Positions 24,528 to 42,389 are shown, counted from the first letter of the stretch. The stretch is DNA of 64,000 nt from Candidatus Limnocylindrales bacterium (GCA_035526025.1 DATLDE010000005.1:32192-96191); one strand, 5' to 3'. A program made the numbers and translations. Notes: generated by a model from the letters alone, not told the origin.

Positions 24528-25682
24528 CTAATTCCTCTGTCTTAGGAATGCGGGGATGTCCCAATCGTCTTCTGGGTTTTCATCTTTTTTAGCTTCTTGC
24601 TGCGGAGGTTGCTGCTGTTGCTGAGCAGGTGTTTCTGAGCCATCAGGCTGATTACCTTGGGCTACTACATTTGGCTGGACTACTTCAGGCTCTGACTGCT
24701 GGACAACAAATTGCTGCATTCGCTGCTTGGCTTGGTCAAATCCTGTTGCCACAACTGTGATACGGATTTGGTCATGCATCGTGTCATCAATTGTCGCACC
24801 AAATATGATATTGGCATCAGGATCCGCGGCATTTGAAATAATCTTTGCAGCCTCATCAACCTCTGTCATGGTCAGATCCTGTCCACCGACTATATTGAAG
24901 AGCACTCCTCTTGCTCCATCCATAGATATCTCAAGAAGTGGAGATGATATCGCAGCTCTTGCTGCTGTCTGTGCCCGATTCTCCCCAATTCCTGTCCCGA
25001 TGCCCATAAGAGATGACCCAGCATCTGACATGATCGTACGCACATCGGCAAAATCAACATTTATAAGTCCAGGAAGTGTGATGATCTCTGAAATCCCCTG
25101 AACACCTTGTGTCAGAACCGAATCAGCTACTTTAAAAGCGTCAAGAAGTGACAATTTACGATCCACAACGTCAAGAATTCTCTGATTTGGGATAACGATC
25201 AATGTATCTGCTTTGTCTTTTAGATTCTCAAGACCCTCCTCAGCTGTCACCATACGCCTTGTGCCCTCAAAAAGGAAGGGCTTTGTGACAACTACAACTG
25301 TTAAGGCACCGAGTTCTTTTGCAATTTTGGCAACAATTGGAGTTGCTCCTGTACCAGTGCCTCCTCCCATACCAGCTGTCAAAAATACCATATCAGAGCC
25401 CTCCAGCATGTGTTTTATCTTTTCTTCTGACTCTTCTGCTGCAAGCCTTCCATTTTCCGGATCGCCACCGGAGCCAAGACCTTTTGTAATTGTTTCACCG
25501 ATTTGAACCTTTGTATCTGCTTTATTGAGAAGAAGAGCCTGCGCATCTGTATTGATTGCAACGAAGTCAACGCCTGAGATTGACCCATGCTCAATCATGG
25601 AGCCTATCGCATTACATCCTGCTCCACCAATACCCACAACGCGTATCTTGGCAAAGTTAGTAGATTGAGGTCTTATTAACAT
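24528..25682 (-). CDS. ftsZ: cell division GTPase FtsZ
   Basis: Has the tubulin signature [21 protein letters not shown] and a Q/P-rich C-terminal linker. Confidence 0.97.
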
Positions 25683-25753
25683 ATATAGTGTGGCTCTTTC
25701 CCAAATCCTACCAGATGTAATTTACAAATGCAATATAGGAAAAAGGTTGACAA

Positions 25754-27052
25754 TTAAGGAATAAATGATTTTATGAGGTTAACAACTCTTTTCATAATTT
25801 TTGAAGCTGCAAAGCCGGATGGCATTTGAACATTAAATTTGAAGTTGGAGGCTTTGGAAGTTGTGTTATGTGCGCCATATTCAATAAGACCGATTGCAGT
25901 TGAAAAAGCAGGATGCTGAACTTCATCAATTATTCCTTTAATGTTGGTTGGTAGGCCAATTCTTACAGGCATTGCAAGTGTTCTTCTGGCTGATTCCTTA
26001 ATTCCTACTGTAAGAGCGCCTCCTCCAGTTAATACAATACCAGCGGGTGTTTGACCTCCAAATCCACTTTTCTTTATTTCAAGTCCGATCATCGCACAAA
26101 TTTCATTAAGACGTGGCTTTATGATCCCATCAACCAAAGTCTTTTGGGAAACTTTCCTTATGTCTTCCTGCAGGTTTAATGAGCTTAGATCAATTTCATC
26201 ACTCGGACGACCGTCTCTTTTCTCATCATCTGATTCATCCATTCTAATACCTGGACGCCTAGCAGGATCTTGAGACAAATATAGCTTTATCTTCTCAGCG
26301 CTTTCTATAGAGAGTCTAAGCCCGATTGCTAGATCATTGGTCACGTGTCTTGCTCCAATAGCTAAGACGCTTGAGTATGCAACTGCTCCCTCAACATATA
26401 TAGAAATATCAGTTGTTCCAGCCCCAATATCAACAAGTATCACTCCCAATTCACGCTCAGTATCAGATAAAACAGCAAGAGAGCTTGCATATCCTGAAAA
26501 TGCAAAACTATCAACATCCACCCCGACCTCAGAAAACGCTTTCTCGAGATTTCTGATCGAGACACTATTTGCGGTTACGATATGAGTATCAACTTCAAGC
26601 CTAGTGCCGGACATCCCAACAGGATCTTTGATCCCTTCCTGCCCATCAACTACAAAACTACGTGGCAGGACATGGATTATCTCACGAGTTGAGGGAATCG
26701 AGACCGCCTTTGCCGCATCAATTACCCGACCCAGATCAGATGACGTTATCTCTCCTTCAGGGGCTGATACAGCGACCACACCACGTGAATTCTGGCATTC
26801 GATTTGTGAACCACCAAGTGACACAAGAACACGACTGGCTGAATACCCGGCCATTCTTTCTGCTGCTTCAAGAGAGGTATTAATAGCTCCTACTGCTTCT
26901 TCTATGTCTACAATTTGACCTTTTCTTATTCCCAAGGACTTTACTTCGGAGGCACCTAATACATTTATGATATTCTCAGTAATTTTGGCGATGACAGTTA
27001 CTACCTTATATGTTCCTACATCTATTCCTACAATTATTTTTCCTTCACTCAT
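25754..27052 (-). CDS. ftsA: cell division protein FtsA (actin-like ATPase)
   Basis: 432 aa. IVGIDVGTYKV has the actin-fold phosphate-1 motif. Lies immediately upstream of ftsZ. Confidence 0.9.
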   Translation of the reverse strand: MSEGKIIVGIDVGTYKVVTVIAKITENIINVLGASEVKSLGIRKGQIVDIEEAVGAINTSLEAAERMAGYSASRVLVSLGGSQIECQNSRGVVAVSAPEGEITSSDLGRVIDAAKAVSIPSTREIIHVLPRSFVVDGQEGIKDPVGMSGTRLEVDTHIVTANSVSIRNLEKAFSEVGVDVDSFAFSGYASSLAVLSDTERELGVILVDIGAGTTDISIYVEGAVAYSSVLAIGARHVTNDLAIGLRLSIESAEKIKLYLSQDPARRPGIRMDESDDEKRDGRPSDEIDLSSLNLQEDIRKVSQKTLVDGIIKPRLNEICAMIGLEIKKSGFGGQTPAGIVLTGGGALTVGIKESARRTLAMPVRIGLPTNIKGIIDEVQHPAFSTAIGLIEYGAHNTTSKASNFKFNVQMPSGFAASKIMKRVVNLIKSFIP

Positions 27053-27056
27053 ATAA

Positions 27057-27488
27057 TTATTGTCTTATGACAGGCTTATCAAAACGCAGATCGAGCTCCT
27101 TAAAGCCCTTACTTTCCATTGTAAGCCTAGTGAGTATAAATTGTAAAGAGGCTAATTGGGTAGGCAAATCCTTATTTGGAGAAAAGATTATTTTCGCTTT
27201 ATCTTTCAGAATCACAATCAGGTTATTATTTGCTACTACTATCTCGTTATAAGAAATATTTTTTTCTTTAAGTAGGCTTTTCAATTCCATAGACCTATCA
27301 TCCTTGTCTGAGGATGAATTCAACTTATAATTAATGGGTAAAGGGCTGATAAATAGGGGTTTATTTGAGAAAGTGAAGTAAATTAGAAGTCCTACTATTA
27401 GAAAAAGAACAAAAAGAACTGCAGACACAATAATTTTAATTGCATTTTTTCGCGAAGTTTTTCTATTTTTATGTTTCGTTTCTGACAT
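27057..27488 (-). CDS. ftsQ: FtsQ/DivIB-like cell division protein (minimal form)
   Basis: 143 aa with a single N-terminal TM helix and a short periplasmic domain ending LASLQFIL...LDLRFDKPVIRQ, like the FtsQ C-terminus. Positioned between murG and ftsA. Confidence 0.5.
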   Translation of the reverse strand: MSETKHKNRKTSRKNAIKIIVSAVLFVLFLIVGLLIYFTFSNKPLFISPLPINYKLNSSSDKDDRSMELKSLLKEKNISYNEIVVANNNLIVILKDKAKIIFSPNKDLPTQLASLQFILTRLTMESKGFKELDLRFDKPVIRQ

Positions 27489-28608
27489 TTTTTATCACTT
27501 CTATTATTTTATCTGCTGCATTAATATCAATCAGCTTTTTCCCCGCTTCAGCATTTTTTATATACATATCAATGTTATCAAACATCTTATCAACAAGTAA
27601 CAACAACTTTTCGGGAGTTAATGAATTTTGTTCTGCAATCTCTGCAATTCCTAAATTCTTAATAAACTCCGCGTTTTTCAATTGCTCCAGGTGCTGACCG
27701 TATGGAAGTGGTATTAAAATCGAAGGTTTTCCAAAATACATAAGTTCAGTTACAGTATTCATGCCTGACCTAGAAATAACTAAATCTGCTTTGTTCAAAA
27801 AATCTGCAACTTTGGATGGATCAATAAATTTATACAAACGATATCCTGATTGCAATTCCGGTGTCATATTTTCTCTTAATTTTACTAATCTCTCAAAATC
27901 CTTATACTCTGATGCTTCACCCACCTGATGAATAACATTATATTTTTCAAGCAACTTTTCGATACAACCCTCGATTAACACATTTATTGCGTGCGACCCG
28001 GAGCTTCCTCCTGTTATATAAATAGTTTTCTCATATGATTTATCTTGTGGGCCATTTTTTTTATAACTATCAGTTCTCATATCTCCAACTTCAAATTCTT
28101 TTCTCAAAGGATTACCCGTAATAACCGTTTTACTTTCTGGAAAAAATTTCCCGGATTGTTCCCAGGAAATACATATTTTTTTTGCTAAATTCGCAACCAT
28201 CTTGTTTGCAATACCAGCCTCAAGCGTCTGCTCATGAATTACGATGGGAATTCTCAGAATGGATGCTGACAATGTTATGGGTACAGATACATAACCCCCA
28301 AAAGACAACACAACATCAGGCTTAAATCTTGTCAAGATATTTGTGGCCTGTGCAAGTCCTACAGGAATTTTTAAAAGAGAGTTGATTGTGTAACGTGTGA
28401 ATTTCCTCTGAAGTCGGCCAGTCGTAAGAGGCTGAAAAGGAATGTTCAACTTTTTTGCAGTCTGATACTCAAGAGAAAATGATTGATCCCCTTCAAAGAC
28501 ATATTTTCGCCCGACCACCAATACTTCCCAATCTTTTGGCAATTTTTCAATGACCGCTAGAGCTGGCGCAAAATGCCCTCCTCCCCCTGCGACAATAATA
28601 AGTTTCAT
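27469..28608 (-). CDS. murG: undecaprenyldiphospho-muramoylpentapeptide beta-N-acetylglucosaminyltransferase MurG
   Basis: MKLIIVAGGGGHFAPALAV is the MurG N-terminal G-loop. Has the GT28 C-terminal domain and sits in the dcw context. Confidence 0.9.
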   Translation of the reverse strand: MKLIIVAGGGGHFAPALAVIEKLPKDWEVLVVGRKYVFEGDQSFSLEYQTAKKLNIPFQPLTTGRLQRKFTRYTINSLLKIPVGLAQATNILTRFKPDVVLSFGGYVSVPITLSASILRIPIVIHEQTLEAGIANKMVANLAKKICISWEQSGKFFPESKTVITGNPLRKEFEVGDMRTDSYKKNGPQDKSYEKTIYITGGSSGSHAINVLIEGCIEKLLEKYNVIHQVGEASEYKDFERLVKLRENMTPELQSGYRLYKFIDPSKVADFLNKADLVISRSGMNTVTELMYFGKPSILIPLPYGQHLEQLKNAEFIKNLGIAEIAEQNSLTPEKLLLLVDKMFDNIDMYIKNAEAGKKLIDINAADKIIEVIKNVRNET

Positions 28609-29333: not shown

Positions 29334-29367
29334 TAAGTAATTATATCAAAACTCGGAGGTTAATTAA

Positions 29368-30435
29368 CTAATCTGACTGCTTGGCGATGTTGAGAAGAAT
29401 TCCAACTGAGGCGAGGTTGAGAATAAGAGCCGAACCACCGTATGAAATAAAAGGAAGCGGCACTCCTGTTAGCGGCAGAAGAGCTGTCATTGCTCCCAGA
29501 TTAATAACTATCTGTATCCCTATAAAAGTGATGATTCCGGCTGCTAAGAGCTTTCCGAATGAATCTCGGCAATTTGCGGAAATCTTAAATCCACAATAAA
29601 TCAAAAATGCGAAAACAATGATAAGTGCTGTTGCACCAACAAATCCAAATTCTTCAGCAATTATGGGAAATATTGAGTCAGTCACATTTTCAGGAAGATA
29701 TGCGTATTTTTGGAGCGAATTTCCGATACCCAGACCCCATATTCCCCCAGATCCCAGCGCTATAAGAATTTGTTTTGTATGATATGAGGTATCTCGGAAA
29801 GAATTCCCAAGATTTAAAAAACTTGTAAGCCTACTCATCCTATATGGTTCAGCTTTTATCAATAAAAACCCCACAAATGCTGCTACCGGAGCACCGAGTA
29901 TAAAATGAAACATATTGCCTCCTGAAAAAAAGTACATTGCAACAGCTTCAAATAAAATAATAGACGCTGTTCCCATATCAGGCTGAAGCATTACCAATAG
30001 AATAACAGACCCAAGTAGCAGTGAAAACGCTAAAAATCTATTTTTTTCTTTTGTTGAAAACCACGCTGCAAGATATATAGCAAGAGCAAGTTTAACAAAT
30101 TCTGATGGCTGAAGCCTAAACCCAAAAATATTTATCCATCTCGCTGCACCCTTTGCTGAAGAACCCGCTCCGGGAATAAAAACCAATATCAGAAGAACTA
30201 ATGACACAATTAATAGGGGCAATGCTAAATTAAACAACTTTTTATAGTCAAAAAAATAAAAAAATGCTAGTCCTATGTATCCCAAAATAATCCAGAGGAC
30301 TTGATCTTTAAAATATCCATATTTGTCTCCGAACAATTCATACGCAATAACTGATGATGAATTGAAGATCATAAGAAGACCAAAAAAAGTAAGTGCGGTA
30401 ACAGTTCCCGCGAGCAGTATGTCGAACCGTTTCAT
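29368..30435 (-). CDS. ftsW: SEDS-family lipid II flippase/peptidoglycan polymerase FtsW
   Basis: SEDS motifs (ARWINIFGFRLQPSEFVKLAL; DSIFPIIAEEFGFVGA) in the dcw position between mraY and murG. The start was moved to ATG 30435 (MKRFDILLAG), which abuts the mraY stop. The track start at 30519 would overlap mraY by 85 nt. Confidence 0.85.
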   Translation of the reverse strand: MKRFDILLAGTVTALTFFGLLMIFNSSSVIAYELFGDKYGYFKDQVLWIILGYIGLAFFYFFDYKKLFNLALPLLIVSLVLLILVFIPGAGSSAKGAARWINIFGFRLQPSEFVKLALAIYLAAWFSTKEKNRFLAFSLLLGSVILLVMLQPDMGTASIILFEAVAMYFFSGGNMFHFILGAPVAAFVGFLLIKAEPYRMSRLTSFLNLGNSFRDTSYHTKQILIALGSGGIWGLGIGNSLQKYAYLPENVTDSIFPIIAEEFGFVGATALIIVFAFLIYCGFKISANCRDSFGKLLAAGIITFIGIQIVINLGAMTALLPLTGVPLPFISYGGSALILNLASVGILLNIAKQSD

Positions 30436-31439
30436 TAGATATTTGAAATGAAGATACCAAGAATAGCTAGAAAAAATCCAATTAGCCAAAGACGCATGAC
30501 GATTTTTGGCTCTTCCCAACCTCTTTGCTGAAGGTACAAATGCATAGGCGCTGCTGGTAAAATCCTACGCCCCAGATACTTCTTTCCCAACAGCTGTATA
30601 AGAGAAAAGCTAACTTCAACAACAAATATACCACCAATTATAATAAGTGCCAGAACTTTGCCGGTTAAAAGACCAGTGACAGCCAGAACCGCCCCGAGAG
30701 ATAGAGATCCTACGTCGCCAAGCCAAAGACGCGCTTTGTAAATATTAAAATATAAAAATGCGGTCAAAGTTCCTATCAAAACTGCGAGAAAAATTCCAAG
30801 TGATTCGTCAAGTGCTGCAGAATTAATAACTAAAAATGCCACAAGACATATCAGGAGAAGTCCTGAAGCTAGACCATCAAGCCCATCCGTAATATTAAAG
30901 GCGTTTACAAATGCCACAATAACAAACGCTGCAAAAGGTATGAATACAGCCCCTAAAAATAGTTTTCCTATTCCATGAATATAAACAAAATCATAATGAA
31001 GCTGTATATAAAATATAAAAGCTATTATAAACGCGAGTACCCACTGGATGATAATCTTGTGGCGAAATCTTAATCCAAACCAATTATTATTTGCTCCCAC
31101 CAACTTTTTAATATCATCATATAATCCCAATAATCCAAAACTAATAAATGCAAAGAACAAAACAAAAATTTCCCAAGGCAACACTTTTGTGTTAAAAATG
31201 CCGTAGGCCCAAAACGTACATATAGTTACAACTAATATTATGAGAATTCCTCCACCGAATGGAGTACCGACTTTCCATGAATTGAATTTATCAAAAAGAG
31301 GAGTTCTCTTATTGAACATATCTCGTGTTGCTTGGTGTGCTCTTCGTAATTTTATGCGATAAAGAAAGTCAATAAAAGGCACGATAAGTATGGCCGTTAC
31401 AAAAAATGAGGATATGATTAGCCCGAGTAGTCGCTCCAT
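30435..31439 (-). CDS. mraY: phospho-N-acetylmuramoyl-pentapeptide transferase MraY
   Basis: 334 aa with about 10 TM helices. Has MraY motifs (NAFNITDGLDGLA; PAAPMHLYLQQRGW). Confidence 0.9.
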   Translation of the reverse strand: MERLLGLIISSFFVTAILIVPFIDFLYRIKLRRAHQATRDMFNKRTPLFDKFNSWKVGTPFGGGILIILVVTICTFWAYGIFNTKVLPWEIFVLFFAFISFGLLGLYDDIKKLVGANNNWFGLRFRHKIIIQWVLAFIIAFIFYIQLHYDFVYIHGIGKLFLGAVFIPFAAFVIVAFVNAFNITDGLDGLASGLLLICLVAFLVINSAALDESLGIFLAVLIGTLTAFLYFNIYKARLWLGDVGSLSLGAVLAVTGLLTGKVLALIIIGGIFVVEVSFSLIQLLGKKYLGRRILPAAPMHLYLQQRGWEEPKIVMRLWLIGFFLAILGIFISNI

Positions 31440-32223: not shown

Positions 32224-33552
32224 TTATTCCTCAGTTACTCTTTGTATGTTTGCGCCAAGTGTTGCTAATCTTTTCTCAAAACTCTCATATCCCCGATCCA
32301 ATTTTTCAATTCCGAAAATTATCGAAGTTCCTCTTGCTACCAATGCAGCCAATACTACAGCTGCTCCCGCTCTTATGTCAAGAGTTGTCATAATTGCGTT
32401 ATGGAGCTTTTTGGGACCGATTATTTTAACAGCATGATAATTCTCAGGAGTGTCATCTTCCAGATTAAAATTATAAGTTTTCTGAGGATCATTAATTTCA
32501 GGATTAAATAATTTTGCTTTTGCACCCATTCTTTTTAAATCTTTTATGTATCCCAACTTGCTCTCAAATACCGTTTCATGAATAATTGACTCCCCATCAG
32601 CCTGTGTCATAAGTACTCCCCATAAAGCCTGCCAGTCCGTAAGAAATCCTGGATGTATTCCAGTTGTGATATCAACAGATTTCAATTTACCATTGGCAAA
32701 AAAACGCATTCCGTTTTCTTTTTTTTCGATGCCAGCTCCGGTTTCTTCAAGCTTTTCAAGAAAAGGTCCAATAGCTGTTTTGTCTGCATCTTTTATGAAA
32801 ATATCTCCTCCTGTTATAATCGCAGCAATTGCAAATGTAGCAACTTCGATTCTGTCTGGACTTATGGTGAATTCCGCACCATGTAATTTATTTACACCAA
32901 TAATTGTGATTTGTCGATCTCCAGTTCTTTTAACTTTTGCCCCCATTAAATTTAATAATAAAATAACATCATCTATTTCTGGCTCTTCCGCCGCGTTATT
33001 CAATATTGTTGTGCCTGATGCCAAGACCGCTGCTAAAATCATGGTTTCCGTTCCCGTGTGTGTGTTCTTTTGAAACGTATAATCAACTCCTTTTAATCCG
33101 CTAGTTTTTGCATGGAAATAGCCATCTTCACTATGATATATAACATCCACATCCATCAATTTAATTCCATCAATTGTTCTGTCAATCGGCCTTGCTCCCA
33201 AACGGCATCCCCCAGGATTTGGAATTATTGCCTCGTGAACCCTTGCAAGTAATGGTGCAATAAACATAGATGATGTTCTGGCAAGAACAGCTTTATCAAG
33301 AGGTATTGAGAAACCTGAAATCTTTTTCATTTGAACAGTGACTGTATGACCTTTAAGGATTACAGAAGCTCCTAAGTCCTTCATAATATCCATCATTACG
33401 AAGAAGTCTGAAATTAGCGGCACATTATGGATTACAACCTTTTCATCAGTCAAGCATGCAGCTACAAGTGTTTTTAAGGCAGCATTTTTTGCACCGGTTA
33501 CACTTATTTTTCCGATTAATTTATTTCCCCCTTTAATTACAAACTTTTCCAT
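32224..33552 (-). CDS. murA: UDP-N-acetylglucosamine 1-carboxyvinyltransferase MurA
   Basis: MEKFVIKGGNKLIGKISVTGAKNAALK is the MurA N-terminus, and the catalytic Cys lies in the PNPGGCRLGARPIDR loop. Confidence 0.92.
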   Translation of the reverse strand: MEKFVIKGGNKLIGKISVTGAKNAALKTLVAACLTDEKVVIHNVPLISDFFVMMDIMKDLGASVILKGHTVTVQMKKISGFSIPLDKAVLARTSSMFIAPLLARVHEAIIPNPGGCRLGARPIDRTIDGIKLMDVDVIYHSEDGYFHAKTSGLKGVDYTFQKNTHTGTETMILAAVLASGTTILNNAAEEPEIDDVILLLNLMGAKVKRTGDRQITIIGVNKLHGAEFTISPDRIEVATFAIAAIITGGDIFIKDADKTAIGPFLEKLEETGAGIEKKENGMRFFANGKLKSVDITTGIHPGFLTDWQALWGVLMTQADGESIIHETVFESKLGYIKDLKRMGAKAKLFNPEINDPQKTYNFNLEDDTPENYHAVKIIGPKKLHNAIMTTLDIRAGAAVVLAALVARGTSIIFGIEKLDRGYESFEKRLATLGANIQRVTEE

Positions 33553-34968
33553 CTATTCAAACCTCAATTGCGAGTGTAATTTATATACATCCCCTGCTCC
33601 CATAGTCACTATGACACTGTCAGACCTAAATCTCTTTTCGTTCAAGTATTTTACCACATCAGTTAGCGTTGCCATATACTTCACATCCTTATGAACATTT
33701 CTCAGTCTATCAGTGAGAACTACTGATGAAATGCTAAGATCTGGCTTTTCTCTAAGGGACGGATATATATCACAGACAATTATTTGATCTACAGAGCTGA
33801 ATGAGCTAATAAATTCTTCGAACAATTTCTTTGTTCGTGAGTATGTATGTGGTTGAAATATTGCAATTAATTTTTTTTTCGGGTACTGATGCCTTAATGC
33901 TTTTAAAGTTTTTTTAATTTCTGTTGGATGATGAGCATAATCATCATACACGCTTGCACCAGTCGACAGATGTCCAATAAATTCCAATCTTCTTTTGGAT
34001 CCGGAAAACGCGCGCAATCCTTTTTTTATTTTTTCAATAGAAATTCCCATTTCTATACATGCTATTATTGATGCTTGGGCATTTAAGGCATTATGCTCAC
34101 CAACAGCTTTAACCATAAATTCACCTATTACAGTTCCATATGAACTTACTGAAATGAACATATGATCTCCAGAGAAATGAACATTTTCCAGAATGTAATT
34201 ATTATCTTTATTAAATCCATATGTGATGAATTTACATTTTGATTCAGTTAACAACTTTTTAACTTCAGGGTCATCACCACAGCAAATTAGTATTGAGTTT
34301 TTTTCCAGTCGATTAACAAAAACAATAAATTCATCCCGAATATCTTCGATTGATGCATATACATCCGGATGATCAAATTCGATATTTGTGATAACTAAAA
34401 TTTTGGGAAATTGCCACAAAAATTTTGCTTTCTTGTTAAAACGCGGTTCAGTTGCGTATTCATCTGCCTCTGCAATAAAATATTTTCCTGATCCCAGATG
34501 CCCTGGCGCACCAAGTGAGGGAATGTCACTAGTTCCGATTAAATATGATGGGTCCATTTTATTTACTTTTAAAATTGTCGCAAGTATAGCGCTTGTGGTA
34601 GTCTTCCCATGTGTTCCGGCAACTGAAACTCCTGTAAACATTTTACCAAAAATCTCACCTGTCATAAACATTCCTACAGCTTCCCCCTGTGTTATAACTT
34701 TAATTTTTTTATCCGCTGCTGTAATTGCTTCAATGTTTTCATATCCACCATGAGCTCCGGTTATAATTACCAGATCTTGATTTTGGATATTTTCTTTTGA
34801 GAATAATTTAATATCTTTTATTCCAGCATCTTTTAGAGGTTTGTCTGTTATGAATTCATCAATCACATCTGACCCTGAAACAATAAAACCTGCTTCTTTG
34901 GCGATAATAGCAAGAGGTGTCATGCCAACGCCCTTTATTCCTACAAAATGAATTTTTAATTTTTTCAT
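33553..34968 (-). CDS. murC: UDP-N-acetylmuramate--L-alanine ligase MurC
   Basis: IHFVGIKGVGMTPLAIIAKEAGFIVSGSD is the MurC N-terminal domain. Has the Mur ligase P-loop GTHGKTTT and the DDYAHHPTEI motif. Confidence 0.9.
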   Translation of the reverse strand: MKKLKIHFVGIKGVGMTPLAIIAKEAGFIVSGSDVIDEFITDKPLKDAGIKDIKLFSKENIQNQDLVIITGAHGGYENIEAITAADKKIKVITQGEAVGMFMTGEIFGKMFTGVSVAGTHGKTTTSAILATILKVNKMDPSYLIGTSDIPSLGAPGHLGSGKYFIAEADEYATEPRFNKKAKFLWQFPKILVITNIEFDHPDVYASIEDIRDEFIVFVNRLEKNSILICCGDDPEVKKLLTESKCKFITYGFNKDNNYILENVHFSGDHMFISVSSYGTVIGEFMVKAVGEHNALNAQASIIACIEMGISIEKIKKGLRAFSGSKRRLEFIGHLSTGASVYDDYAHHPTEIKKTLKALRHQYPKKKLIAIFQPHTYSRTKKLFEEFISSFSSVDQIIVCDIYPSLREKPDLSISSVVLTDRLRNVHKDVKYMATLTDVVKYLNEKRFRSDSVIVTMGAGDVYKLHSQLRFE

Positions 34969-35612
34969 ACCATACTTATCACGGTTGCAAATCTGTCATA
35001 TTTGTCGCCACGTCTATACGAATATAATAACTCGCTGTTACACTTAGTACACAGATCTATATCTTCTATGTTTTCTTGGATTATTCCCTCGTCTAATAAC
35101 ATTTGTTGTGCAATTTTTCGAAGATCCAAAAGCCTGCCATTTACTTCATAGCATTTTTTTTCAATACCTGGCCCTATTCCTACAAAAATATTTTTTGAAT
35201 CGCTTTTAAATTCTTTTTTAAATTTTTCGATTGTGTTTTTTATTATTCCCTTGAGTAATCCTTTCCTACCTGCATGGGCAACACCTATGACTTGATTTAT
35301 AGGGTCAAAAAATAGAATTGGCAGACAATCGGCAGTTACAACGCAAAGTGAAATATTTTTCTTAGCTGTTACCAATCCATCCGTATTCTCAATTAATAAT
35401 TTATCAAAATTGTTTACAACTTCTACATTTCCACTGTGAATTTGATTCATACAAATCGCTGAGTCGGGCAATTTCACGTGCTTTAAAAACTTTGTAAGAT
35501 TTTCCCGGTTAATCAAGTTATCATCGTTTTTTATAGTCCCAAACTTTTTAGTTGAGATAGCATGGGAAATGTTTTTGAAATGTGAAAAAACTTTAAATTT
35601 ATAAATATCCAT
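34965..35612 (-). CDS. pgeF: YfiH/PgeF (DUF152) purine nucleoside phosphorylase / peptidoglycan editing factor family
   Basis: HSGNVEVV...CVVTADCLPILFFDP...GVAHAGRKG are the DUF152 catalytic His/Cys/His motifs. Confidence 0.8.
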   Translation of the reverse strand: MDIYKFKVFSHFKNISHAISTKKFGTIKNDDNLINRENLTKFLKHVKLPDSAICMNQIHSGNVEVVNNFDKLLIENTDGLVTAKKNISLCVVTADCLPILFFDPINQVIGVAHAGRKGLLKGIIKNTIEKFKKEFKSDSKNIFVGIGPGIEKKCYEVNGRLLDLRKIAQQMLLDEGIIQENIEDIDLCTKCNSELLYSYRRGDKYDRFATVISMV

Positions 35613-35631: not shown

Positions 35632-36873
35632 CTACTTCTTAATTCTTTTATTTATTGCTTCCAACGCTACCTGCTTCTCATCCCACGGCTCTTCTCCTTG
35701 TCCATAATTTATTGATTTTTCATGTCCTTTTCCGGTGAGTATAATCACATCTCCCTTTGTGGCAAGAGAAACTGCAAATTCGATTGCGTCTCTTCTATTT
35801 GGAATTGATATTATATATTTATTTTTTGAATCCAGATATACTTCAGAATTTTTGACTGCAAGATAATTAACAATTCCGAATTCAGGACTTTTGATGCCTG
35901 AAATAATTTCGCTGTTAATTTCTTCTACTGTCTCGTTTCTTGGGTCTTCTGCGGTTAAAATCATAATGTCGCTAAAATCAGATGAAATCTTGCCCATCTC
36001 TGACCTCTTGTACTTATCTCTTTTTCCTGCTGCACCAAATACATGAATAAGTTTATTTTTTGTGATTTTTTTAGCTTCTGGAAGGATAACTGAAAAAGAA
36101 TTTGGAGTATGGGCAAAATCATTAATCACGAGGAATTCCTTATCATAAACTATTTCCTGCCTACCTGATGGTGCTACAAAACTCGCAACTCCTTTTCGGA
36201 TTTCATCATCAGGTATATTGAGCTGCTTCAATACAGCTATGGCAGCAAGAGAATTATAAGCATTAAATTTTCCAAGAAGCTTTGTTTTAAATGTAAAATT
36301 ATGTGGATTTATTTTTGCATCATTTTTAAAACCATAGGTTATTATTTTTTTATTTCTTAATATTTTTTTCATCAACACATATGACTTATCATCTTTATTG
36401 AGAATTGCAATCTTTGCGCTTTTTAACAATCTTGATTTGGCTAGAGCGTATTTTTCATAAGTTTTGTGATAATCAAGATGCTCATTTGTTATATTTGTCA
36501 GAACTCCTACCTCAATTGGTATTCCATAAGCTCTGTATTGATCAAGTGCGTGTGATGTGATTTCCAGAACTACATATTCGACACCCAATTTTTTTGATTT
36601 TTTTAGATATGATTGAAGCGCAAATCTACCAGGAGTTGTAACGTGGAAACCTATATCAGATTCTTTATTGCTTATTATTGCCCCAACTGAGGAAATAAGT
36701 GAAGCCTTATACCCTGCTTTATTTAAAACATGATAAATAAGACTTGCTGTAGTTGTCTTACCATCAGTTCCTGTGACACCAATCACTTTTAGTTTTCTTG
36801 CCGGGAACCAATACATGATGTTGGCAAGCAATGCTTGAGATAAATGATATTGATTTTTTGCAGTTTGCCACAT
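35632..36873 (-). CDS. murE: UDP-MurNAc-L-Ala-D-Glu--2,6-diaminopimelate (or L-Lys) ligase MurE with reduced N-terminal domain
   Basis: Mur ligase P-loop GVTGTDGKTTT, GRQEIV...VINDFAHTPNSF (the MurE-type DxAHTPDAL box) and a C-terminal domain. Only about 30 aa precede the P-loop. Confidence 0.7.
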   Translation of the reverse strand: MWQTAKNQYHLSQALLANIMYWFPARKLKVIGVTGTDGKTTTASLIYHVLNKAGYKASLISSVGAIISNKESDIGFHVTTPGRFALQSYLKKSKKLGVEYVVLEITSHALDQYRAYGIPIEVGVLTNITNEHLDYHKTYEKYALAKSRLLKSAKIAILNKDDKSYVLMKKILRNKKIITYGFKNDAKINPHNFTFKTKLLGKFNAYNSLAAIAVLKQLNIPDDEIRKGVASFVAPSGRQEIVYDKEFLVINDFAHTPNSFSVILPEAKKITKNKLIHVFGAAGKRDKYKRSEMGKISSDFSDIMILTAEDPRNETVEEINSEIISGIKSPEFGIVNYLAVKNSEVYLDSKNKYIISIPNRRDAIEFAVSLATKGDVIILTGKGHEKSINYGQGEEPWDEKQVALEAINKRIKK

Positions 36874-36874
36874 A

Positions 36875-37453
36875 TTATCTTATATAACGATGAATAAATT
36901 CCTGTATCAATCCATAATTTTGATAATACAAATATATATTTAAAAGAATAAGCCCTGGAAATATTACTAATTTTTCAATATATCCTCCAGTCAGAATTCT
37001 AAAATGCCGGATTGGGGGCAAACCGAACTTAACAGGTATAGGTAAGAGCCATGGTACGCCCTCTTTGGTAAAAGTATCCATAACAAGATGTGAGAAAAAA
37101 CCAATCATAAACGCTGACCATATGATATCCATATTTAGAGATGGGAAGCTAGGTTTTAAAACTTCTTGCAAAAAACGAAATCCTGCTCCAAAAATTACAA
37201 TCCCTATAACTGAATGAGAGAGAAACCTATGCCCTCCTAAGATTTTTCCGAAAAATCGGCCAAACATTCCCCCAATTGGAAGATTACGCCAAAAAGGAGC
37301 AGTAGATTGATCGACATCAGGCGCTATACCTCCTATCATATTTGCAATGAGAGCAACAAGGGCCGTGGCAAGGGTAATTTTTGGGAGAGGATTACTTACG
37401 ATTACTACTCCCATCGCAGTAAATGCTGCCAGATCATGAGTTCTTCCTGTCAT
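36875..37453 (-). CDS. membrane-bound metal-dependent hydrolase, DUF457/YdjM-like
   Basis: 192 aa. MTGRTHDLAAFTAMGVV..., four TM segments and conserved His/Asp residues. Confidence 0.5.
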   Translation of the reverse strand: MTGRTHDLAAFTAMGVVIVSNPLPKITLATALVALIANMIGGIAPDVDQSTAPFWRNLPIGGMFGRFFGKILGGHRFLSHSVIGIVIFGAGFRFLQEVLKPSFPSLNMDIIWSAFMIGFFSHLVMDTFTKEGVPWLLPIPVKFGLPPIRHFRILTGGYIEKLVIFPGLILLNIYLYYQNYGLIQEFIHRYIR

Positions 37454-37549
37454 AATTTATCCCAATCCTGAGCTAGTCGAAGGATCGTGGACTATAAGTA
37501 TATCAAAAATAGAGCACACAATACCAAAATTTATGTTAAAATAATTATT

Positions 37550-37885
37550 ATGAAACCGATAATAAACTACGAAGATTTTTCAAAGCTGGATATACGTGTT
37601 GGAACTGTAATTGACTGTATTGAGAAAGAAGGATCGGATAAGCTTCTCAGGCTTACAGTTGACTTTGGCGAAGAAGGAACTCGAAATATCCTTTCTGGAA
37701 TAAAGCAATGGTACAAGCCTACTGACCTCATAGACAAACAATTCGTATTTGTTTTCAACCTTGCACCAAGAAAAATAATGGGAGAAGAATCTGAGGGAAT
37801 GATATTGGCAGCTGATGGTAAAAATGGCAAACCACAGCCCCTTAAACCTAAATCAAAAGCTCCCAATGGTTCCGCGATTTTATAA
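37550..37885 (+). CDS. csaA: tRNA-binding domain protein (CsaA/Trbp111/MetRS C-terminal OB-fold-like)
   Basis: IINYEDFSKLDIRVGTVIDCIEKEGSDKLLRLTVDFGEEGTRNILSGIKQWYKPTDLIDKQFVFVFNLAPRKIMGEESEGMILAADG is a canonical tRNA_bind domain. Start taken at ATG 37550 (MKPIINYE). The track ORF begins at 37487. Confidence 0.75.
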   Translation: MKPIINYEDFSKLDIRVGTVIDCIEKEGSDKLLRLTVDFGEEGTRNILSGIKQWYKPTDLIDKQFVFVFNLAPRKIMGEESEGMILAADGKNGKPQPLKPKSKAPNGSAIL

Positions 37886-37931
37886 ACTATATTGTTGATT
37901 TTTATGCAATTTTAGTATAAACTCTCGTCTT

Positions 37932-39005
37932 ATGAGACTTGAGAATAGATATAATTTAAATTCTCACATTGAAAATAAACTGCGTCCACCACACTCACCT
38001 GACGTAAGAAAATATACAATTTTTGATTTTAGGCAAGTTGGAAGCAAAGAAAAACAACCATTTGTAAACCTACTTCCAGGAAAAGTTACATTTTGGCCTG
38101 AAGATCACTCTGTTATTGTACAAGGAGATAAACGGTCGCTAAGACCTAAGGAGCAAGCTTTATTACGCCAATTGCTAGAACAACCCAATTGCATAATTTC
38201 CTCTGAGGAATTAAGTGGAAAAATCTGGCCCAATAGACCATATAGGCCAACGCAGTTACCACTGCTAGCGCTACAGTTGCGAAGAAAAATTGAGCCAACT
38301 CCAAAAAAACCAGTTATCATTCAAACGGTTAAAGGGGAAGGTTATAGATTTGGCGATAAACGTGAAACTAGAACAGAAGTTGAAATAAAAATTGCAAAAG
38401 ACATCGTCTATCTGCCCGATCAAAGAAAAATTGTGGTAAATGGAAAAGAAAAAAAATTGTCAAAGCCTCAAGATGCATTTTTAGAAATGCTCATCGAAAA
38501 AAATCATGAATCTGTCTCCGGTGAAGAAATATACGATCATGCATGGCCGAGTGAACAATATAGCTTAGTCCGGCTATCAACGCTTGTTAGAAGTTTACGT
38601 GAAAAATTAGAACCAGATCCGCTCAAACCAACAATTATTCTAAGGGTTCGAGGAGAGGGCTATAAACTCGCTGATTTAGATTCGTCTAAAGAAAAAGAGC
38701 TAGAGCTTGCAGTAGGTAAATTAAGATATTCTCATGGACAAAGAAATATTACTTTAGGTAAAGATGTAGTCGTACTAACAGAGAGGGAGCATTCAGTACT
38801 ACTGGCATTCTGCGCAAGTCCAGGCGAAATAATGACTCGCGATGAATTAAAAAGAAGAGCTTGGGGAGATGACTCAAATGTTCAAATAGTAAACGTCAAT
38901 AATTATGTGACGAAAATAAGAAATAAATTAGGCAAAGATTCGATTAGAAAACATTTTGGAATAGGATATAGCCTCAATCTAGCTGAAGGTTTTGATAATA
39001 AATAG
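37932..39005 (+). CDS. DNA-binding protein composed of three tandem OmpR/PhoB-type winged-helix (Trans_reg_C) domains, with no receiver domain
   Basis: Three repeats of about 90 aa, each ending in the wHTH wing signature: ...ISSEELSGKIWPNRPY...LALQLRRKIE...IIQTVKGEGYRFGD; ...VSGEEIYDHAWPSEQY...LVRSLREKLE...IILRVRGEGYKLAD; ...MTRDELKRRAWGDDSNVQIVNVNNYVTKIRNKLG...IRKHFGIGYSLNL. Confidence 0.7.
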   Translation: MRLENRYNLNSHIENKLRPPHSPDVRKYTIFDFRQVGSKEKQPFVNLLPGKVTFWPEDHSVIVQGDKRSLRPKEQALLRQLLEQPNCIISSEELSGKIWPNRPYRPTQLPLLALQLRRKIEPTPKKPVIIQTVKGEGYRFGDKRETRTEVEIKIAKDIVYLPDQRKIVVNGKEKKLSKPQDAFLEMLIEKNHESVSGEEIYDHAWPSEQYSLVRLSTLVRSLREKLEPDPLKPTIILRVRGEGYKLADLDSSKEKELELAVGKLRYSHGQRNITLGKDVVVLTEREHSVLLAFCASPGEIMTRDELKRRAWGDDSNVQIVNVNNYVTKIRNKLGKDSIRKHFGIGYSLNLAEGFDNK

Positions 39006-39024
39006 CTTGAACCGCAACATAGCT

Positions 39025-40704
39025 CTATTCACTCGGTGGTATTCCATAATAAGTGAACATATTTTTTGCTGCTGTGAAGAAAATTGGCGCTGCTGTTTCG
39101 GCTCCATAAATTGACGTCGTTGGTCTATCGATAACTACAAGCATAAGGAATTTGGGGTCGTCTGCAGGTGCAAACCCAATGAATGACGCAATTGTTTTAT
39201 TCGCATCATAATGACCTTCGACAGGAATCTGTGCTGTTCCTGTTTTACCTGCTATCCTGTATCCTTTTGGTTTGGCAAATTTGGACTCTCCATTGTCTAC
39301 TGCATTTACCATCATTTCAGTTACTACATGTGCTGTTCTTTCTGATACTGGCTTCCCAAGCAGTTTTGGTTTTATTTCAATACTTTCTCCGTCAACTGTA
39401 GTGATTTTACTTACAACATGCGGCTCCATTCTATTTCCATTATTTGCAATTGCTGAAAACGCAGTGAGTAGTTGAATAGGGGTAACTGTTATCCCCTGTC
39501 CAAAACTCGATGTTGCCAAATCAATTGGGTACCAACTATCACGGGGTCTAATACTTGGCACTACTTCTCCCTGAAGATCTATTCCTGTTTGCTCTCCGAA
39601 TCCAAATTTATTTATGTAAGACATCATTCGGTCAAGTCCCAGTGACTGCCCTATATAAACCATTCCGGTATTATCTGAGCGCTTTATTACATCTGTCATT
39701 GTTCCCTGTGTAACGTATTTATTGTTCCAGGTGCGTATTTCATATCCACCGATTTCAACAGGGCCTGAGCAGATAGGACATTTTGTGTCAGGCTTTATTA
39801 GTCCAGCATCAAGACCTGCAGCCATAACCAACGGTTTGAATGTAGAACCAGGCTCATATGTATCAGAAATAAGTGGATCCCTATAAAGCTTGTCTGAGTA
39901 TTCTTGATACTCCTTTGGATCAAATGTTGGAAATGAAGACATGGCTATCATAGCACCAGTCTTTGGATCCATAATTGCTGCCATCCCTCCTGTAGCCCCA
40001 TACCTCTCTACACCGTCTTTTAAAGTCTCATCAAGCATGAACTGTATGGATCTGTTGATATTAAGCGTGAGGCTTCTCCCATCAGATTGTCCTGTTTTTC
40101 CCTCGAGCTTAGAGAGTATAGGCCTTCCCGCAGCGTCATGAATAACAACAGCATGGGTTGATTTTCCCCTCAATTGCCTATCATAAAACCCTTCCAATCC
40201 AAAATAACCTTTATCGCTTCCATTATCGTCTTTCCCCACAAATCCAAAAAGCTTTGCTGACATTGATGCCTCAGGATAGAAACGACTGGACTGTTTTTCA
40301 AAACCCACCCCTTTAAATTTTAAAGACTCTATCTTTTCTTTGGCCTTATGGTCAATATGATTTTTTATTGGTACCCAAAAACGATCGAGCTTAAGCTGAG
40401 CACTAATTGTTGAAGATTCCGTTTTCAGTATCGGTGCGAGCGCATCAGAAAGTTCACTCTTATCCTCTACTTCTTTAGGGTTTGCAAAAACTAAGTATGA
40501 AAGCTTGTTGGCAACAACGCTATAATCATCACTTGTTTTAATTTCGCCTCTCTCAGCTGGTAATAATATATTTCTTCCATATTGGGACTGAGCAATTGAT
40601 TGAAGTTCAGATGCTCGCACAACCTGCCAATAAAATAATCTCGCAGTCACGAGAAAAAAAAGCACAAAAAATGCGAATAAACTAAATTTATAACGCCAAC
40701 TCAT
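39025..40704 (-). CDS. ftsI: penicillin-binding protein 2/3-type peptidoglycan D,D-transpeptidase FtsI
   Basis: 559 aa. N-terminal TM helix, dimerisation domain, the transpeptidase motifs STFK (YEPGSTFKP), SDN (KRSDNTG) and KTGT (AGKTGTAQ). Confidence 0.9.
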   Translation of the reverse strand: MSWRYKFSLFAFFVLFFLVTARLFYWQVVRASELQSIAQSQYGRNILLPAERGEIKTSDDYSVVANKLSYLVFANPKEVEDKSELSDALAPILKTESSTISAQLKLDRFWVPIKNHIDHKAKEKIESLKFKGVGFEKQSSRFYPEASMSAKLFGFVGKDDNGSDKGYFGLEGFYDRQLRGKSTHAVVIHDAAGRPILSKLEGKTGQSDGRSLTLNINRSIQFMLDETLKDGVERYGATGGMAAIMDPKTGAMIAMSSFPTFDPKEYQEYSDKLYRDPLISDTYEPGSTFKPLVMAAGLDAGLIKPDTKCPICSGPVEIGGYEIRTWNNKYVTQGTMTDVIKRSDNTGMVYIGQSLGLDRMMSYINKFGFGEQTGIDLQGEVVPSIRPRDSWYPIDLATSSFGQGITVTPIQLLTAFSAIANNGNRMEPHVVSKITTVDGESIEIKPKLLGKPVSERTAHVVTEMMVNAVDNGESKFAKPKGYRIAGKTGTAQIPVEGHYDANKTIASFIGFAPADDPKFLMLVVIDRPTTSIYGAETAAPIFFTAAKNMFTYYGIPPSE

Positions 40705-40709
40705 TTTTA

Positions 40710-41006
40710 TTATTCAGCCTGCGTGGATTTTATTGCTAGTGGCAGGGGCGTAGATAAGTATACCTGATTTTTTGACTCGATAAATCCCTTCTCCCTTGCA
40801 CTCACAGAAATCTTGGTCAAAGATGATTTCTCGAGATATCTTTCTTCGAGCTGCGCATTGGATTTCTTGTACTCTTCTATCTTCTCTTCATAACCAATCA
40901 ATTCAACGCCAGTTGTGGAAATACTATTTTCTATTGTAACTCTGGCTACTGCTAGAGAGATGATGATCAGAAATATAAAAATAATTAATCTTTTTGGTCT
41001 TTTCAT
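40710..41006 (-). CDS. ftsL: FtsL/DivIC-like septum formation protein
   Basis: 98 aa. A single TM helix plus a short coiled coil (KIEEYKKSNAQLEERYLEK). Positioned between rsmH and ftsI. Confidence 0.55.
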   Translation of the reverse strand: MKRPKRLIIFIFLIIISLAVARVTIENSISTTGVELIGYEEKIEEYKKSNAQLEERYLEKSSLTKISVSAREKGFIESKNQVYLSTPLPLAIKSTQAE

Positions 41007-41893
41007 AGTTTTTCTATCACTCTTAATTTTGAACTTCTACTTTTTTTATTTCTTCGTATCTCGTCCTCAGACGGAATGACAGGTTTTTTTGTAATTATTT
41101 TCCCTATTAAATCTTTTTCAAAATCCTTAAACTGATTTTTTACTATTCTATCTTCAAGTGAATGAAAAGAGATAACAGCTAGCCTCCCACCCTTTTCAAT
41201 CAATCCAAAAGCTTTTGGCAAGCTAATTTTTAAGCAATTAATTTCATCATTAATTGCTATTCTCAGCGCCTGAAATACTTTTGTTGCCGGATTAATTTTA
41301 AAATTTCCCCTATATTCACCTTTTACAATTTCTACCAACTCTGATGTTGTTGAAATTAAACTTACTTTTCGTGCCTGGATAATTCGCTCAGCTATAGAAT
41401 GAGCACTGTACTCCTCTCCAAGTTTGATAAATAATTCAACTAACTCCCTTTTTGACAATATATTTATAAGATCCTGGGCCTTAACACCAAGATCCCGGTC
41501 CATTCGCATATCAAGCGGTCCATCTTGCTGAAAGCTAAATCCTCTTTCAGCAATTTGCAACTGATGACTTGATACGCCAAGATCAAAAACAATTCCATTT
41601 ACATTTTCAAATCCCAAATCGCGCGCGATCTTATCAATATCTTTAAAATTTCCTTTTACCACAACCAAATTATCATTCCTGCCCAAATCTTTTATCTTCA
41701 AACCTAAATCATTATTTACGAAATCCAATGCATCCTGGTCAACATCCATTCCCAACACTTTCCCACCAAGCCTCAATATCTCCAATGTATGTCCGCCTCC
41801 GCCCAATGTCGCATCAATATACTTATTCTCAGGTAGAACGTTCAAATATTCAATTGTTTCTTTTAGTAATACACTTTCGTGATAATCACTCAC
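41003..41893 (-). CDS. rsmH: 16S rRNA (cytosine1402-N4)-methyltransferase RsmH/MraW
   Basis: Has the SAM-binding motifs YIDATLGGGGHTLEIL, VFDLGVSSHQL and AVISFHSLEDRIVK. Confidence 0.92.
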   Translation of the reverse strand: MSDYHESVLLKETIEYLNVLPENKYIDATLGGGGHTLEILRLGGKVLGMDVDQDALDFVNNDLGLKIKDLGRNDNLVVVKGNFKDIDKIARDLGFENVNGIVFDLGVSSHQLQIAERGFSFQQDGPLDMRMDRDLGVKAQDLINILSKRELVELFIKLGEEYSAHSIAERIIQARKVSLISTTSELVEIVKGEYRGNFKINPATKVFQALRIAINDEINCLKISLPKAFGLIEKGGRLAVISFHSLEDRIVKNQFKDFEKDLIGKIITKKPVIPSEDEIRRNKKSRSSKLRVIEKL

Positions 41894-41930
41894 TTCTGCC
41901 CTTTCTATGTTATTAGTTATTTGTTATAAG

Positions 41931-42389
41931 TTATTCGATTTCTCCGGACAGTCTTTCTGCAATTGACTCTATCTTTTCATTTAAATCATTCTGATGCTCA
42001 ACCCACCCTTTCTTATTCCAAACCTCAACAAATCGTTCAATTCCTGCAAAGACAATTTCATTATCAATTTTCGCAAATTCTCTTAAATATTCAGGTATCA
42101 CGAACCTTCCTTTATTGTCCAACTCAATGTCTGTTGCATTTCCCAAAAGAAATCTTTGCAATTCCCGTGTATTTTTATTTGTAAAAGGTCTACCTGTTGT
42201 CCCTTCAAGTAAAGTCTTCCAGTTATCAAGCGAAACAACGATCAAGCAATTCTCAAATCCTTTTGTAATTATCAACCTATCACCCAACACTTCTCTAAAT
42301 TTCTTAGGAAGTGATGCCTGATGTTTTTCACTTACTTTACTTTCATACTGCCCGATTAACATATTTACTGCCTCTACTTTTATTTCCAA
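41931..42389 (-). CDS. mraZ: transcriptional regulator MraZ
   Basis: 152 aa with a duplicated MraZ/SpoVT-AbrB fold (MLIGQYESKV...KGRFVIPEYLRE). First gene of the dcw cluster. Confidence 0.88.
   Translation of the reverse strand: MEIKVEAVNMLIGQYESKVSEKHQASLPKKFREVLGDRLIITKGFENCLIVVSLDNWKTLLEGTTGRPFTNKNTRELQRFLLGNATDIELDNKGRFVIPEYLREFAKIDNEIVFAGIERFVEVWNKKGWVEHQNDLNEKIESIAERLSGEIE

Follow-up and report, generated by a model that had tools for sequence, protein, structure and literature searches.

Few gene arrangements in bacteria are as conserved as the division and cell-wall (dcw) cluster, which has been used to reason on early cell-envelope evolution. Here we describe the dcw cluster at positions 24,528 to 42,389 of a 64,000-nucleotide (nt) stretch of DNA (hereafter, the window; GCA_035526025.1, DATLDE010000005.1:32192-96191) deposited under the name Candidatus Limnocylindrales bacterium. 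Open reading frames (ORFs) were assigned with Pfam and NCBIfam, and all gene positions are window coordinates (Table 1). An earlier note on this DNA, made from the sequence alone, had given a gene order from mraZ to ftsZ; that order was recovered, with the ORFs at the coordinates listed there and the named families matched. The polarity regarded in the note as ancestral is also kept, as the same-strand cluster starts with mraZ-rsmH and ends with ftsA-ftsZ. The co-directional minus-strand run is broken by two plus-strand genes at 37487-39005, which split the cluster into a first block, mraZ-rsmH-ftsL-ftsI, and a second block, ydjM-murE-pgeF-murC-murA-glmU(N)-mraY-ftsW-hydrolase-murG-ftsQ-ftsA-ftsZ, where glmU(N) denotes a gene for the N-terminal domain of GlmU alone. 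Neighbouring minus-strand genes are tightly packed, with gaps of -20 to +71 nt. A promoter and terminator scan over the cluster gave 80 promoter-like sites, compared with 65.6 ± 9 in shuffled sequence, and thus no excess.

The cluster is non-canonical, as the note had held, and contains two precursor-supply functions, murA and a UDP-N-acetylglucosamine (UDP-GlcNAc) pyrophosphorylase domain (TIGR01072 and TIGR01173). Its precursor-gene set is incomplete: murC, murE, mraY and murG are present, and murD, murF, murB and ddl are found neither in the cluster nor in the rest of the window. In the divisome set, ftsI, ftsW, ftsA and ftsZ have family matches. The labels ftsL and ftsQ agree with position and with a single transmembrane helix in each product, but the family match is below the cut-off for FtsL and there is none for FtsQ. 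The FtsL-like protein has its helix at residues 2-20 and is 77% identical to its counterpart in the related locus L081 (loci are designated by L numbers); the FtsQ-like protein has its helix at residues 13-31 and is weakly tied to homologs of 267-295 amino acids (aa) in L025 and L039, which carry a sub-threshold POTRA_1 match (E 0.01-0.02). MurE, FtsL and FtsQ are indeed minimal versions, with 413 aa and no N-terminal domain, 98 aa and 143 aa, respectively. The listed TTG start of ftsW overlaps mraY by 85 nt, and FtsW proteins of relatives have 356-374 aa; the true start is probably near 30492. One label did not hold: the gene called csaA matches the methionyl-tRNA synthetase C-terminal model TIGR00399 (metG_C_term) with 115 bits and the CsaA models with only 62-71 bits.

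Table 1 Genes of the dcw cluster and its upstream neighbour, in window coordinates
Feature	Position	Strand	Evidence and remarks
Conserved 166-aa bitopic protein	42577..43077	-	Just upstream of mraZ; no Pfam match; transmembrane helix at residues 8-26
mraZ	41931..42389	-	PF02381, E 3.8e-22; first cluster gene
rsmH (mraW), 16S rRNA methyltransferase	41003..41893	-	PF01795, E 3.4e-94
FtsL-like bitopic protein, 98 aa	40710..41006	-	TIGR02209, E 1.3e-4, under cut-off; between rsmH and ftsI
ftsI, class B penicillin-binding protein	39025..40704	-	PBP_dimer and Transpeptidase domains; top NCBIfam match SpoVD/PBP2-type
Protein of three tandem OmpR/PhoB-type winged-helix domains, no receiver	37932..39005	+	PF00486 in three stretches; between ftsI and the tRNA-binding gene
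Stand-alone tRNA-binding domain protein	37550..37885 (listed ORF from 37487)	+	PF01588; MetRS C-terminal-type
YdjM/DUF457-family membrane protein	36875..37453	-	PF04307, E 2e-21; three predicted transmembrane segments
Short MurE, 413 aa, two-domain Mur ligase	35632..36873	-	TIGR01085, 359 bits (cut-off 257), model positions 70-471
pgeF (peptidoglycan editing factor/YfiH family)	34965..35612	-	TIGR00726, 158.8 bits (equivalog cut-off 141.15)
murC, full three-domain ligase	33553..34968	-	TIGR01082, 398 bits (cut-off 335)
murA	32224..33552	-	TIGR01072, 444 bits (cut-off 392.7); AroA only 88 bits
GlmU N-terminal (uridyltransferase) domain alone, 250 aa	31469..32221	-	TIGR01173 positions 3-237 of 452, E 2e-59
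mraY	30435..31439	-	PF00953; TIGR00445, 178 bits, slightly below cut-off (192)
ftsW (SEDS)	29368..30519	-	TIGR02614, 337.5 bits, equal to cut-off
Alpha/beta hydrolase, 242 aa	28605..29333	-	PF00561, PF12146, PF00326; no signal peptide or transmembrane helix
murG	27469..28608	-	PF03033 and PF04101; TIGR01133, 240.6 bits (cut-off 250)
FtsQ-like bitopic protein, 143 aa (tentative)	27057..27488	-	No Pfam match; between murG and ftsA
ftsA	25754..27052	-	PF14450 and PF02491
ftsZ	24528..25682	-	PF00091 and PF12327; last cluster gene

The absence of murB, murD, murF and ddl extends from the cluster to the whole window on both strands, as judged by Pfam, a six-frame scan with hidden Markov models (HMMs) and tblastn. 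Pfam on all larger ORFs gave no further Mur ligase, MurB or Ddl; the other larger ORFs encode ATP synthase, many glycosyltransferases, DUF4012, RecO, two aminoacyl-tRNA synthetases, a second SEDS protein and ParB. In the six-frame scan, HMMs made from the MurB, MurD and MurF proteins of relatives and an Escherichia coli DdlB sequence served as queries against every segment of 40 aa or more, with matches accepted up to E ≤ 10. Their sole matches in the window were murC and murE; the DdlB query readily found Ddl in relatives. A tblastn search of the window likewise gave no murB, murD, murF or ddl. The plus strand, where the note had allowed that murD, murF or ddl might turn up, was covered in these six frames and holds none of them.

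The window MurE is identical to NCBI protein HUQ85004.1, which comes from a metagenome-assembled genome (MAG) labelled Candidatus Limnocylindrales, but its nearest relatives are in Levy-, Gottesman-, Roizman-, Woese- and Daviesbacteria MAGs. Given these relatives and a G+C content of about 35%, we assign the source to a Microgenomates bacterium, related to Levybacteria within the candidate phyla radiation (CPR, Patescibacteria), which is mislabelled in NCBI; the contig has probably been mis-binned. Many public MAG records that hold such CPR contigs are labelled Limnocylindrales, Gammaproteobacteria, Methylomirabilota, Xanthomonadales or Bathyarchaeia, and these labels are evidently wrong or the contigs mis-binned.

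The same gene order is seen in four independent assemblies with MurE 71-80% identical to that of the window: L081 (GCA_040384045.1), L083 and L084 (two JGI samples) and L167 (GCA_029260965.1). The order common to these close relatives is mraZ-rsmH-ftsL-ftsI-[tRNA-binding gene, opposite strand]-(ydjM)-murE-pgeF-murC-murA-glmU(N)-mraY-ftsW-(hydrolase)-murG-ftsQ-ftsA-ftsZ, with brackets around genes found in some of them, and tblastn over the 10 kb on each side of the cluster in L081, L083 and L167 detected none of murB, murD, murF and ddl. Identities to L081 and L083 are 91-93% for MraY, 77-88% for MurA, 76-80% for MurE and 62-68% for the hydrolase. The ratio of nonsynonymous to synonymous substitution rates (dN/dS) against L081 could be computed for 9 of 15 cluster genes. 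It is 0.03-0.22 in these nine, with 0.04-0.06 for MurA, MurC and MurE, at saturated synonymous sites, and all nine evolve under purifying selection; in ftsL, ftsI, ydjM, glmU(N), mraY and murG, saturation of the synonymous divergence precluded an estimate. As the same order recurs in independent assemblies and dN/dS is low, the arrangement is real, inherited and functional and no artefact of assembly. The cluster order is thus conserved among relatives and not randomly shuffled, an outcome that the note had left to such a comparison.

A wider comparison shows how the cluster relates to those of its class. With the window proteins and with HMMs built here, annotation covered 80 genome loci centred on murE, 80 metagenome loci centred on murD and several further contigs. 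In about 60 Microgenomates loci the common backbone reads mraZ-rsmH-ftsL-ftsI-murE-(pgeF)-murC-(murB)-murA-(glmU, glmS, a hydrolase)-(ddl)-(murF)-mraY-(murD)-ftsW-murG-ftsQ-ftsA-ftsZ, usually preceded by DUF4012-recO-proS and the conserved 166-aa membrane protein. The block murE-(pgeF)-murC-(murB)-murA, placed after ftsI and before mraY, is found in the window and in the 44 loci where murC and murA are both observed; murA comes next after murC or murB in 44 relatives, and mraZ has orthologs at the equivalent position in about 50. Accessory genes were counted as loci carrying the gene over loci where both flanking genes are observed. By this count murB occupies the place between murC and murA in 22 of 44 cases, pgeF that between murE and murC in 22 of 49, and murF and glmU(N) each that between murA and mraY in 8 of 25. 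Upstream of mraY, ddl directly precedes murF in L020, L023, L027, L037 and L090, and murD is placed between mraY and ftsW in L026, L029, L041, L049, L053 and 11 metagenome loci. L093 carries a near-complete set, rsmH-ftsL-ftsI-murE-murC-murB-murA-murF-mraY-murD-ftsW...murG-ftsQ-ftsA-ftsZ, and L007 has the order murC-murB-murA-glmU(full)-x-glmS-hydrolase-murF.

These relatives do not bear out the suggestion in the note that murA and a nucleotidyltransferase gene took over the positions of murF, murD and ddl. Many of them (L007, L020, L023, L029, L090 and L093) have murA, GlmU and GlmS in a cluster that also contains murB, ddl, murF and murD, and L168, described below, keeps relics of murB and murF at the expected positions. 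Since the two sets coexist, the one did not replace the other, and the absence is a later deletion: in the sublineage of the window, murB, ddl, murF and murD disappeared from the cluster secondarily. The odd gene content is the ordinary layout of the lineage minus four genes: a lineage variant and no new kind of system.

An intermediate on the way to this state can be seen in L168 (GCA_964391315.1), the MurE of which is 64% identical to that of the window. The window backbone recurs in L168: the tRNA-binding gene lies on the opposite strand, ydjM, pgeF and glmU(N) are present, and the ftsW-murG junction carries the same hydrolase gene. Between its murC and murA lies a 220-aa MurB fragment (L168:13389-14051) that spans residues 1-228 of 325 and is without the MurB_C domain; just before mraY lies a 397-aa MurF fragment (L168:17097-18290) that spans residues 1-393 of 529 and is missing its C-terminal domain. 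The absent C-terminal parts of both genes were not found in any frame, and there is no space for them. In genomes with MurE at least 71% identical to that of the window, murB and murF are both gone and the junctions measure 0-29 nt; the murD slot between mraY and ftsW has closed up in the window. The truncated relics look like gene decay caught in progress and, with the loss of both genes from closer genomes, suggest that in-cluster murB and murF decayed and were then deleted recently on the branch that leads to the window.

If the cluster lost these genes, the corresponding steps have to be placed, and other members of the class offer a precedent. Levybacteria clusters without murD are known (L004, L011, L012, L014 and L015), yet MurD proteins exist in Levybacteria. 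Their murD genes lie far from the dcw cluster and adjoin the glutamate racemase gene murI, in L086:9186-11380 (Levybacteria), in L088 and in about 14 loci among L087-L166; this pairing puts the supply of D-Glu beside the D-Glu ligase. In addition, L012, L014, L015 and L005 have a divergent MurF-like ligase elsewhere, between ftsI and murE. Since murD is found outside the cluster within the same class, it is quite probable, by analogy, that the steps missing here are encoded elsewhere in the genome too.

As a separate observation, L003 and L085 have a pair of murD and short murE away from any dcw genes. The L003 copy of murD (8600-9990, in a Gottesmanbacteria MAG), beside murE, needs at least three frame changes to read through, which are probably homopolymer errors of long-read sequencing and not the mark of a pseudogene; the L003 MurD protein was reconstructed by hand for use as a query.

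Our favoured reading, in which we place good though not complete confidence, is that of a lineage-typical Microgenomates cluster from which murB, ddl, murF and murD have been deleted, with those steps most likely encoded elsewhere. The GlmU uridyltransferase domain would then form UDP-GlcNAc and MurA would take the first committed step; MurC would add L-Ala and MurE the third residue, PgeF would proofread, and MraY and MurG would make lipid I and lipid II. FtsW and FtsI would polymerise and cross-link septal peptidoglycan, FtsL, FtsQ, FtsA and FtsZ would serve as divisome parts, and the steps of MurB, Ddl, MurF and MurD would be supplied by genes elsewhere, much like the murI-murD pairs of other Levybacteria. 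Several observations weigh against this reading. No murB, murD, murF or ddl of the sublineage of the window was recovered in the window, within 10 kb on either side of the clusters of L081, L083 and L167, or among the database matches listed. Protein searches with MurF and MurD gave, among the best 120 matches each, none on a contig that also carries a MurE of the window clade, and a metagenome scan with MurD gave no window-clade contig among the matches listed, in which no window protein was matched at 75% identity or more. The truncated relics in L168 are also compatible with a real loss of functions, and the identities of FtsL and FtsQ are tentative, being drawn from position and membrane topology. 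The negative MurD and MurF searches carry little weight, because they cover the best 120 or 80 matches and even the lists for MurD and for MurF have no entry in common; in the genome collection searched, the closest relatives are at most 66% identical.

A rival reading is a real loss, under which the sublineage would have no MurB, MurD, MurF or Ddl and would obtain precursors through host intermediates or muropeptides, or through non-homologous or multifunctional enzymes. The four genes have left no trace in the 64 kb of the window or in the 10-kb flanks of the L081, L083 and L167 clusters, murB and murF in the L168 cluster are decaying and not relocating, and no MurD or MurF of the window clade appears among the matches listed in three database searches. 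CPR bacteria are typically host-dependent, which also favours a loss. However, MurA, MurC, MurE, MraY and MurG are 76-93% identical between close relatives, with the low dN/dS given above for the first three, and such conservation makes little sense if the intervening reactions are missing: the product of MurA serves no purpose in the absence of MurB, and MurE depends on MurD for its substrate. Moreover, the window MurC passes the MurC equivalog cut-off and scores under that of Mpl, the tripeptide salvage ligase, murD is scattered outside the cluster in the same class, and the negative searches are low in power. We therefore favour dispersal of the genes and regard their real loss as unlikely. 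A specific form of it, in which lipid II comes from host salvage or unrecognised enzymes that possibly act at the membrane rather than on soluble UDP-linked intermediates, seems less likely again, although Microgenomates may use an altered late cytoplasmic wall-precursor pathway. If the deleted steps were truly absent from the genome, the cluster would represent a natural partial Mur pathway in a free-standing, not intracellular, lineage.

An adaptive swap, in which murA and a UDP-sugar pyrophosphorylase gene were recruited into the murF, murD and ddl slots and so coupled precursor supply to the division operon, would accord with the location of murA and the GlmU-like gene between murC and mraY and with the recurrent embedding of the UDP-GlcNAc supply genes glmU and glmS in Microgenomates dcw clusters. 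We consider it very improbable: gain and loss are separate events, as the six relatives with both sets attest, the murD slot has simply closed up, and in-cluster murA has been inferred to be ancestral for Terrabacteria (PMC8871954). There is least to be said for mis-assembly, chimeric binning or frameshifted gene calls. The Limnocylindrales label does suggest a CPR contig in the wrong bin, but mis-binning leaves gene order within a contig unaffected, the order is repeated in the four independent NCBI and JGI assemblies, the junctions are so tight (0-34 nt) that the missing genes could not fit, and the short MurE is shared by more than 100 homologs; we give an artefact almost no credence.

The short MurE itself departs from the solved Mur ligases. 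It scores above the MurE cut-off, and its scores against the paralog models are far lower (108 bits for murC, 103 for murD and 79 for murF, compared with 359 for TIGR01085). No PF01225 match is found for an N-terminal domain, and the alignment to the family model lacks positions 1-69. Thirty-one residues precede the P-loop (residues 32-41), and the protein aligns to Thermotoga maritima MurE (4BUB) from residue 88 of the latter. An AlphaFold2 model has a pLDDT of 84.7, and its best matches in the Protein Data Bank are MurE structures, with template-modelling scores of 0.78-0.86 when normalized to the query and 0.67-0.73 when normalized to the longer targets. Like the three-domain MurE enzymes of E. 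coli (1E8C), T. maritima (4BUB) and Mycobacterium tuberculosis (2WTZ), the window protein has the central ATP-binding and C-terminal domains; unlike them, it is without the N-terminal domain of about 85 residues, and a conserved helix of about 20 residues alone precedes the P-loop. In the 4BUB alignment it has an EDPR motif, which stands where E. coli MurE has DNPR and does not settle the amino-acid specificity (meso-diaminopimelate or Lys). More than 100 MurE homologs have 405-420 aa with an invariant N-terminal 'MWQ..KN.YH' helix, and MurE ORFs in a dcw context have a median length of 410 aa, compared with about 520 aa in the nearest non-CPR relatives, the Chloroflexi. Since so many homologs share this length, the short MurE is a class-wide Microgenomates trait and not an artefact.

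In solved Mur ligases the N-terminal domain helps to bind the UDP-MurNAc-peptide (PMC10214165). The class-wide two-domain MurE may thus be a simple case of a Mur ligase that works without its substrate-anchoring domain. Microgenomates MurF is also without the canonical N-terminal domain; in Levybacteria MurF (529-545 aa) about five predicted transmembrane helices in the first 155 residues take its place (L007:19074-20663, L004:14751-16376 and L011:16031-17656). The literature that we searched contained no description of a MurE without its N-terminal domain, of the Microgenomates form of MurF, or of dcw order in CPR bacteria. The two-domain MurE and the murB and murF relics of L168 are side observations worthy of note.

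The window cluster can be set against two reference arrangements. The canonical dcw cluster of the E. coli and Bacillus type reads mraZ-rsmH-ftsL-ftsI-murE-murF-mraY-murD-ftsW-murG-murC-(murB)-ddl-ftsQ-ftsA-ftsZ. The window shares its tight operon-like packing and the relative order of mraZ, rsmH, ftsL, ftsI, murE, mraY, ftsW, murG, ftsQ, ftsA and ftsZ. In contrast, murC directly follows murE and not murG; murA, pgeF and the GlmU N-domain gene are inside; murF, murD, murB and ddl are absent; and two opposite-strand genes and two hydrolase-family genes are inserted. The second arrangement is the complete 17-gene cluster with murA and murB that Leonard et al. (2022) inferred for the bacterial and Terrabacteria ancestors and found extant only in Halanaerobiales, with Acetohalobium as the one example given (PMC8871954); CPR bacteria were excluded from that analysis, the main reconstruction published. 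The window likewise has murA inside, but holds 13 of the 17 genes; the Microgenomates relatives L023, L029, L090 and L093 jointly show all 17 in one cluster, although the murC-murB-murA block follows murE and precedes murF. As in-cluster murA is inferred to be ancestral for Terrabacteria (PMC8871954), murA in the window is therefore a retention and not an innovation. Microgenomates keep a murA-containing super-cluster with a fixed order of their own, in which UDP-GlcNAc supply genes have repeatedly been embedded, and one sublineage has been caught deleting murB and murF.

Gene fusions form part of the same comparison. Shirakawa et al. (2023) described Mur chimeras that include MurC-MurB of Verrucomicrobia and MurC-Ddl of Chlamydiae (PMC10214165). 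The window itself has no fusions, but its relatives show MurC-MurB (L006:3360-5666, 768 aa, Pfam-verified), the GlmU uridyltransferase domain fused to MurC (L029:11196-13187, 663 aa) and MurF fused to an alpha/beta hydrolase (P0160, 738 aa). The latter two are not among the chimera types listed in PMC10214165, and the fusions in relatives extend the list to CPR bacteria. L062:11231-13519 encodes a 762-aa MurC with an extension.

The glmU(N) product matches TIGR01173 with 202 bits, compared with a cut-off of 367, and gives no Hexapep match, so that it has no acetyltransferase domain. It shares the N-terminal pyrophosphorylase domain with bifunctional GlmU, without the left-handed beta-helix acetyltransferase domain. 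Orthologs of this form occur in L081, L083, L167, L168, L004, L011, L012, L014 and L015. From homology and gene context, its role is likely to be the provision of UDP-GlcNAc for MurA and MurG. No acetyltransferase partner adjoins the gene in the window. In other loci the partner varies, from a separate hexapeptide-repeat gene (L006:7752-8378 and L009:10410-11072) to a GNAT-family gene (L168:16143-16595). L006 and L009 have the split glmU followed by a separate acetyltransferase gene and glmS, and L007 and L005 have a full archaeal-type GlmU instead. A 197-aa hexapeptide transferase elsewhere in the window (60068-60661) was considered for the missing acetyltransferase half and rejected, as the likeness is one of generic repeats alone.

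The remaining inserted genes differ in their distribution. The alpha/beta hydrolase, predicted to be cytoplasmic, is found at the ftsW-murG junction in L081, L083 and L168 with 46-68% identity (dN/dS 0.17) and is a marker of the sublineage of the window. A different hydrolase family accompanies murF in other Levybacteria and is the one joined to MurF in P0160; orthology of the window protein to that murF-adjacent hydrolase was rejected, as the two share 24% identity over 89 aa only. The ydjM gene is present in L081, L168, L001, L002 and L013 and absent in L083 and L167. For the tRNA-binding protein, the ATG at 37550 is the likely start and gives 111 aa; its orthologs in L081, L083, L167, L168, L013 and L028 have 109-111 aa and share its location and its opposite-strand orientation. 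The triple winged-helix gene is absent from the close relatives L081, L083, L167 and L168 and is therefore a private insertion in the genome of the window; no repeats that would mark a mobile element were found around it. The protein is rare, with four representatives at E ≤ 1e-30 in a library of 1.84 billion, and one full-length homolog has 50% identity.

Outside the cluster, homologs of the 166-aa protein stand between proS and mraZ in most Levybacteria-like loci, and this protein may belong to the cluster of the lineage. The string NTP-transferase/Bac_transf/DUF4012/recO/proS/166-aa protein/mraZ is syntenic across Levybacteria-like genomes and reaches position 50216 in the window. On the other side, the 19964-23883 region holds the second SEDS protein, which is RodA-like (TIGR02210, 302 bits); its gene overlaps the end of ileS by 4 nt, a short way downstream of an ITPase gene and ftsZ. 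The window showed neither an MreB nor a second class B penicillin-binding protein. The adjacency of ftsZ and ileS recurs in L025, L031, L098 and L105. Two large glycosyltransferase blocks, at 10236-17785 and 48464-63968, which also include a PMT-family protein and Wzy-like proteins (one with 1038 aa), lie on either side of the cluster and suggest extensive synthesis of surface glycans.

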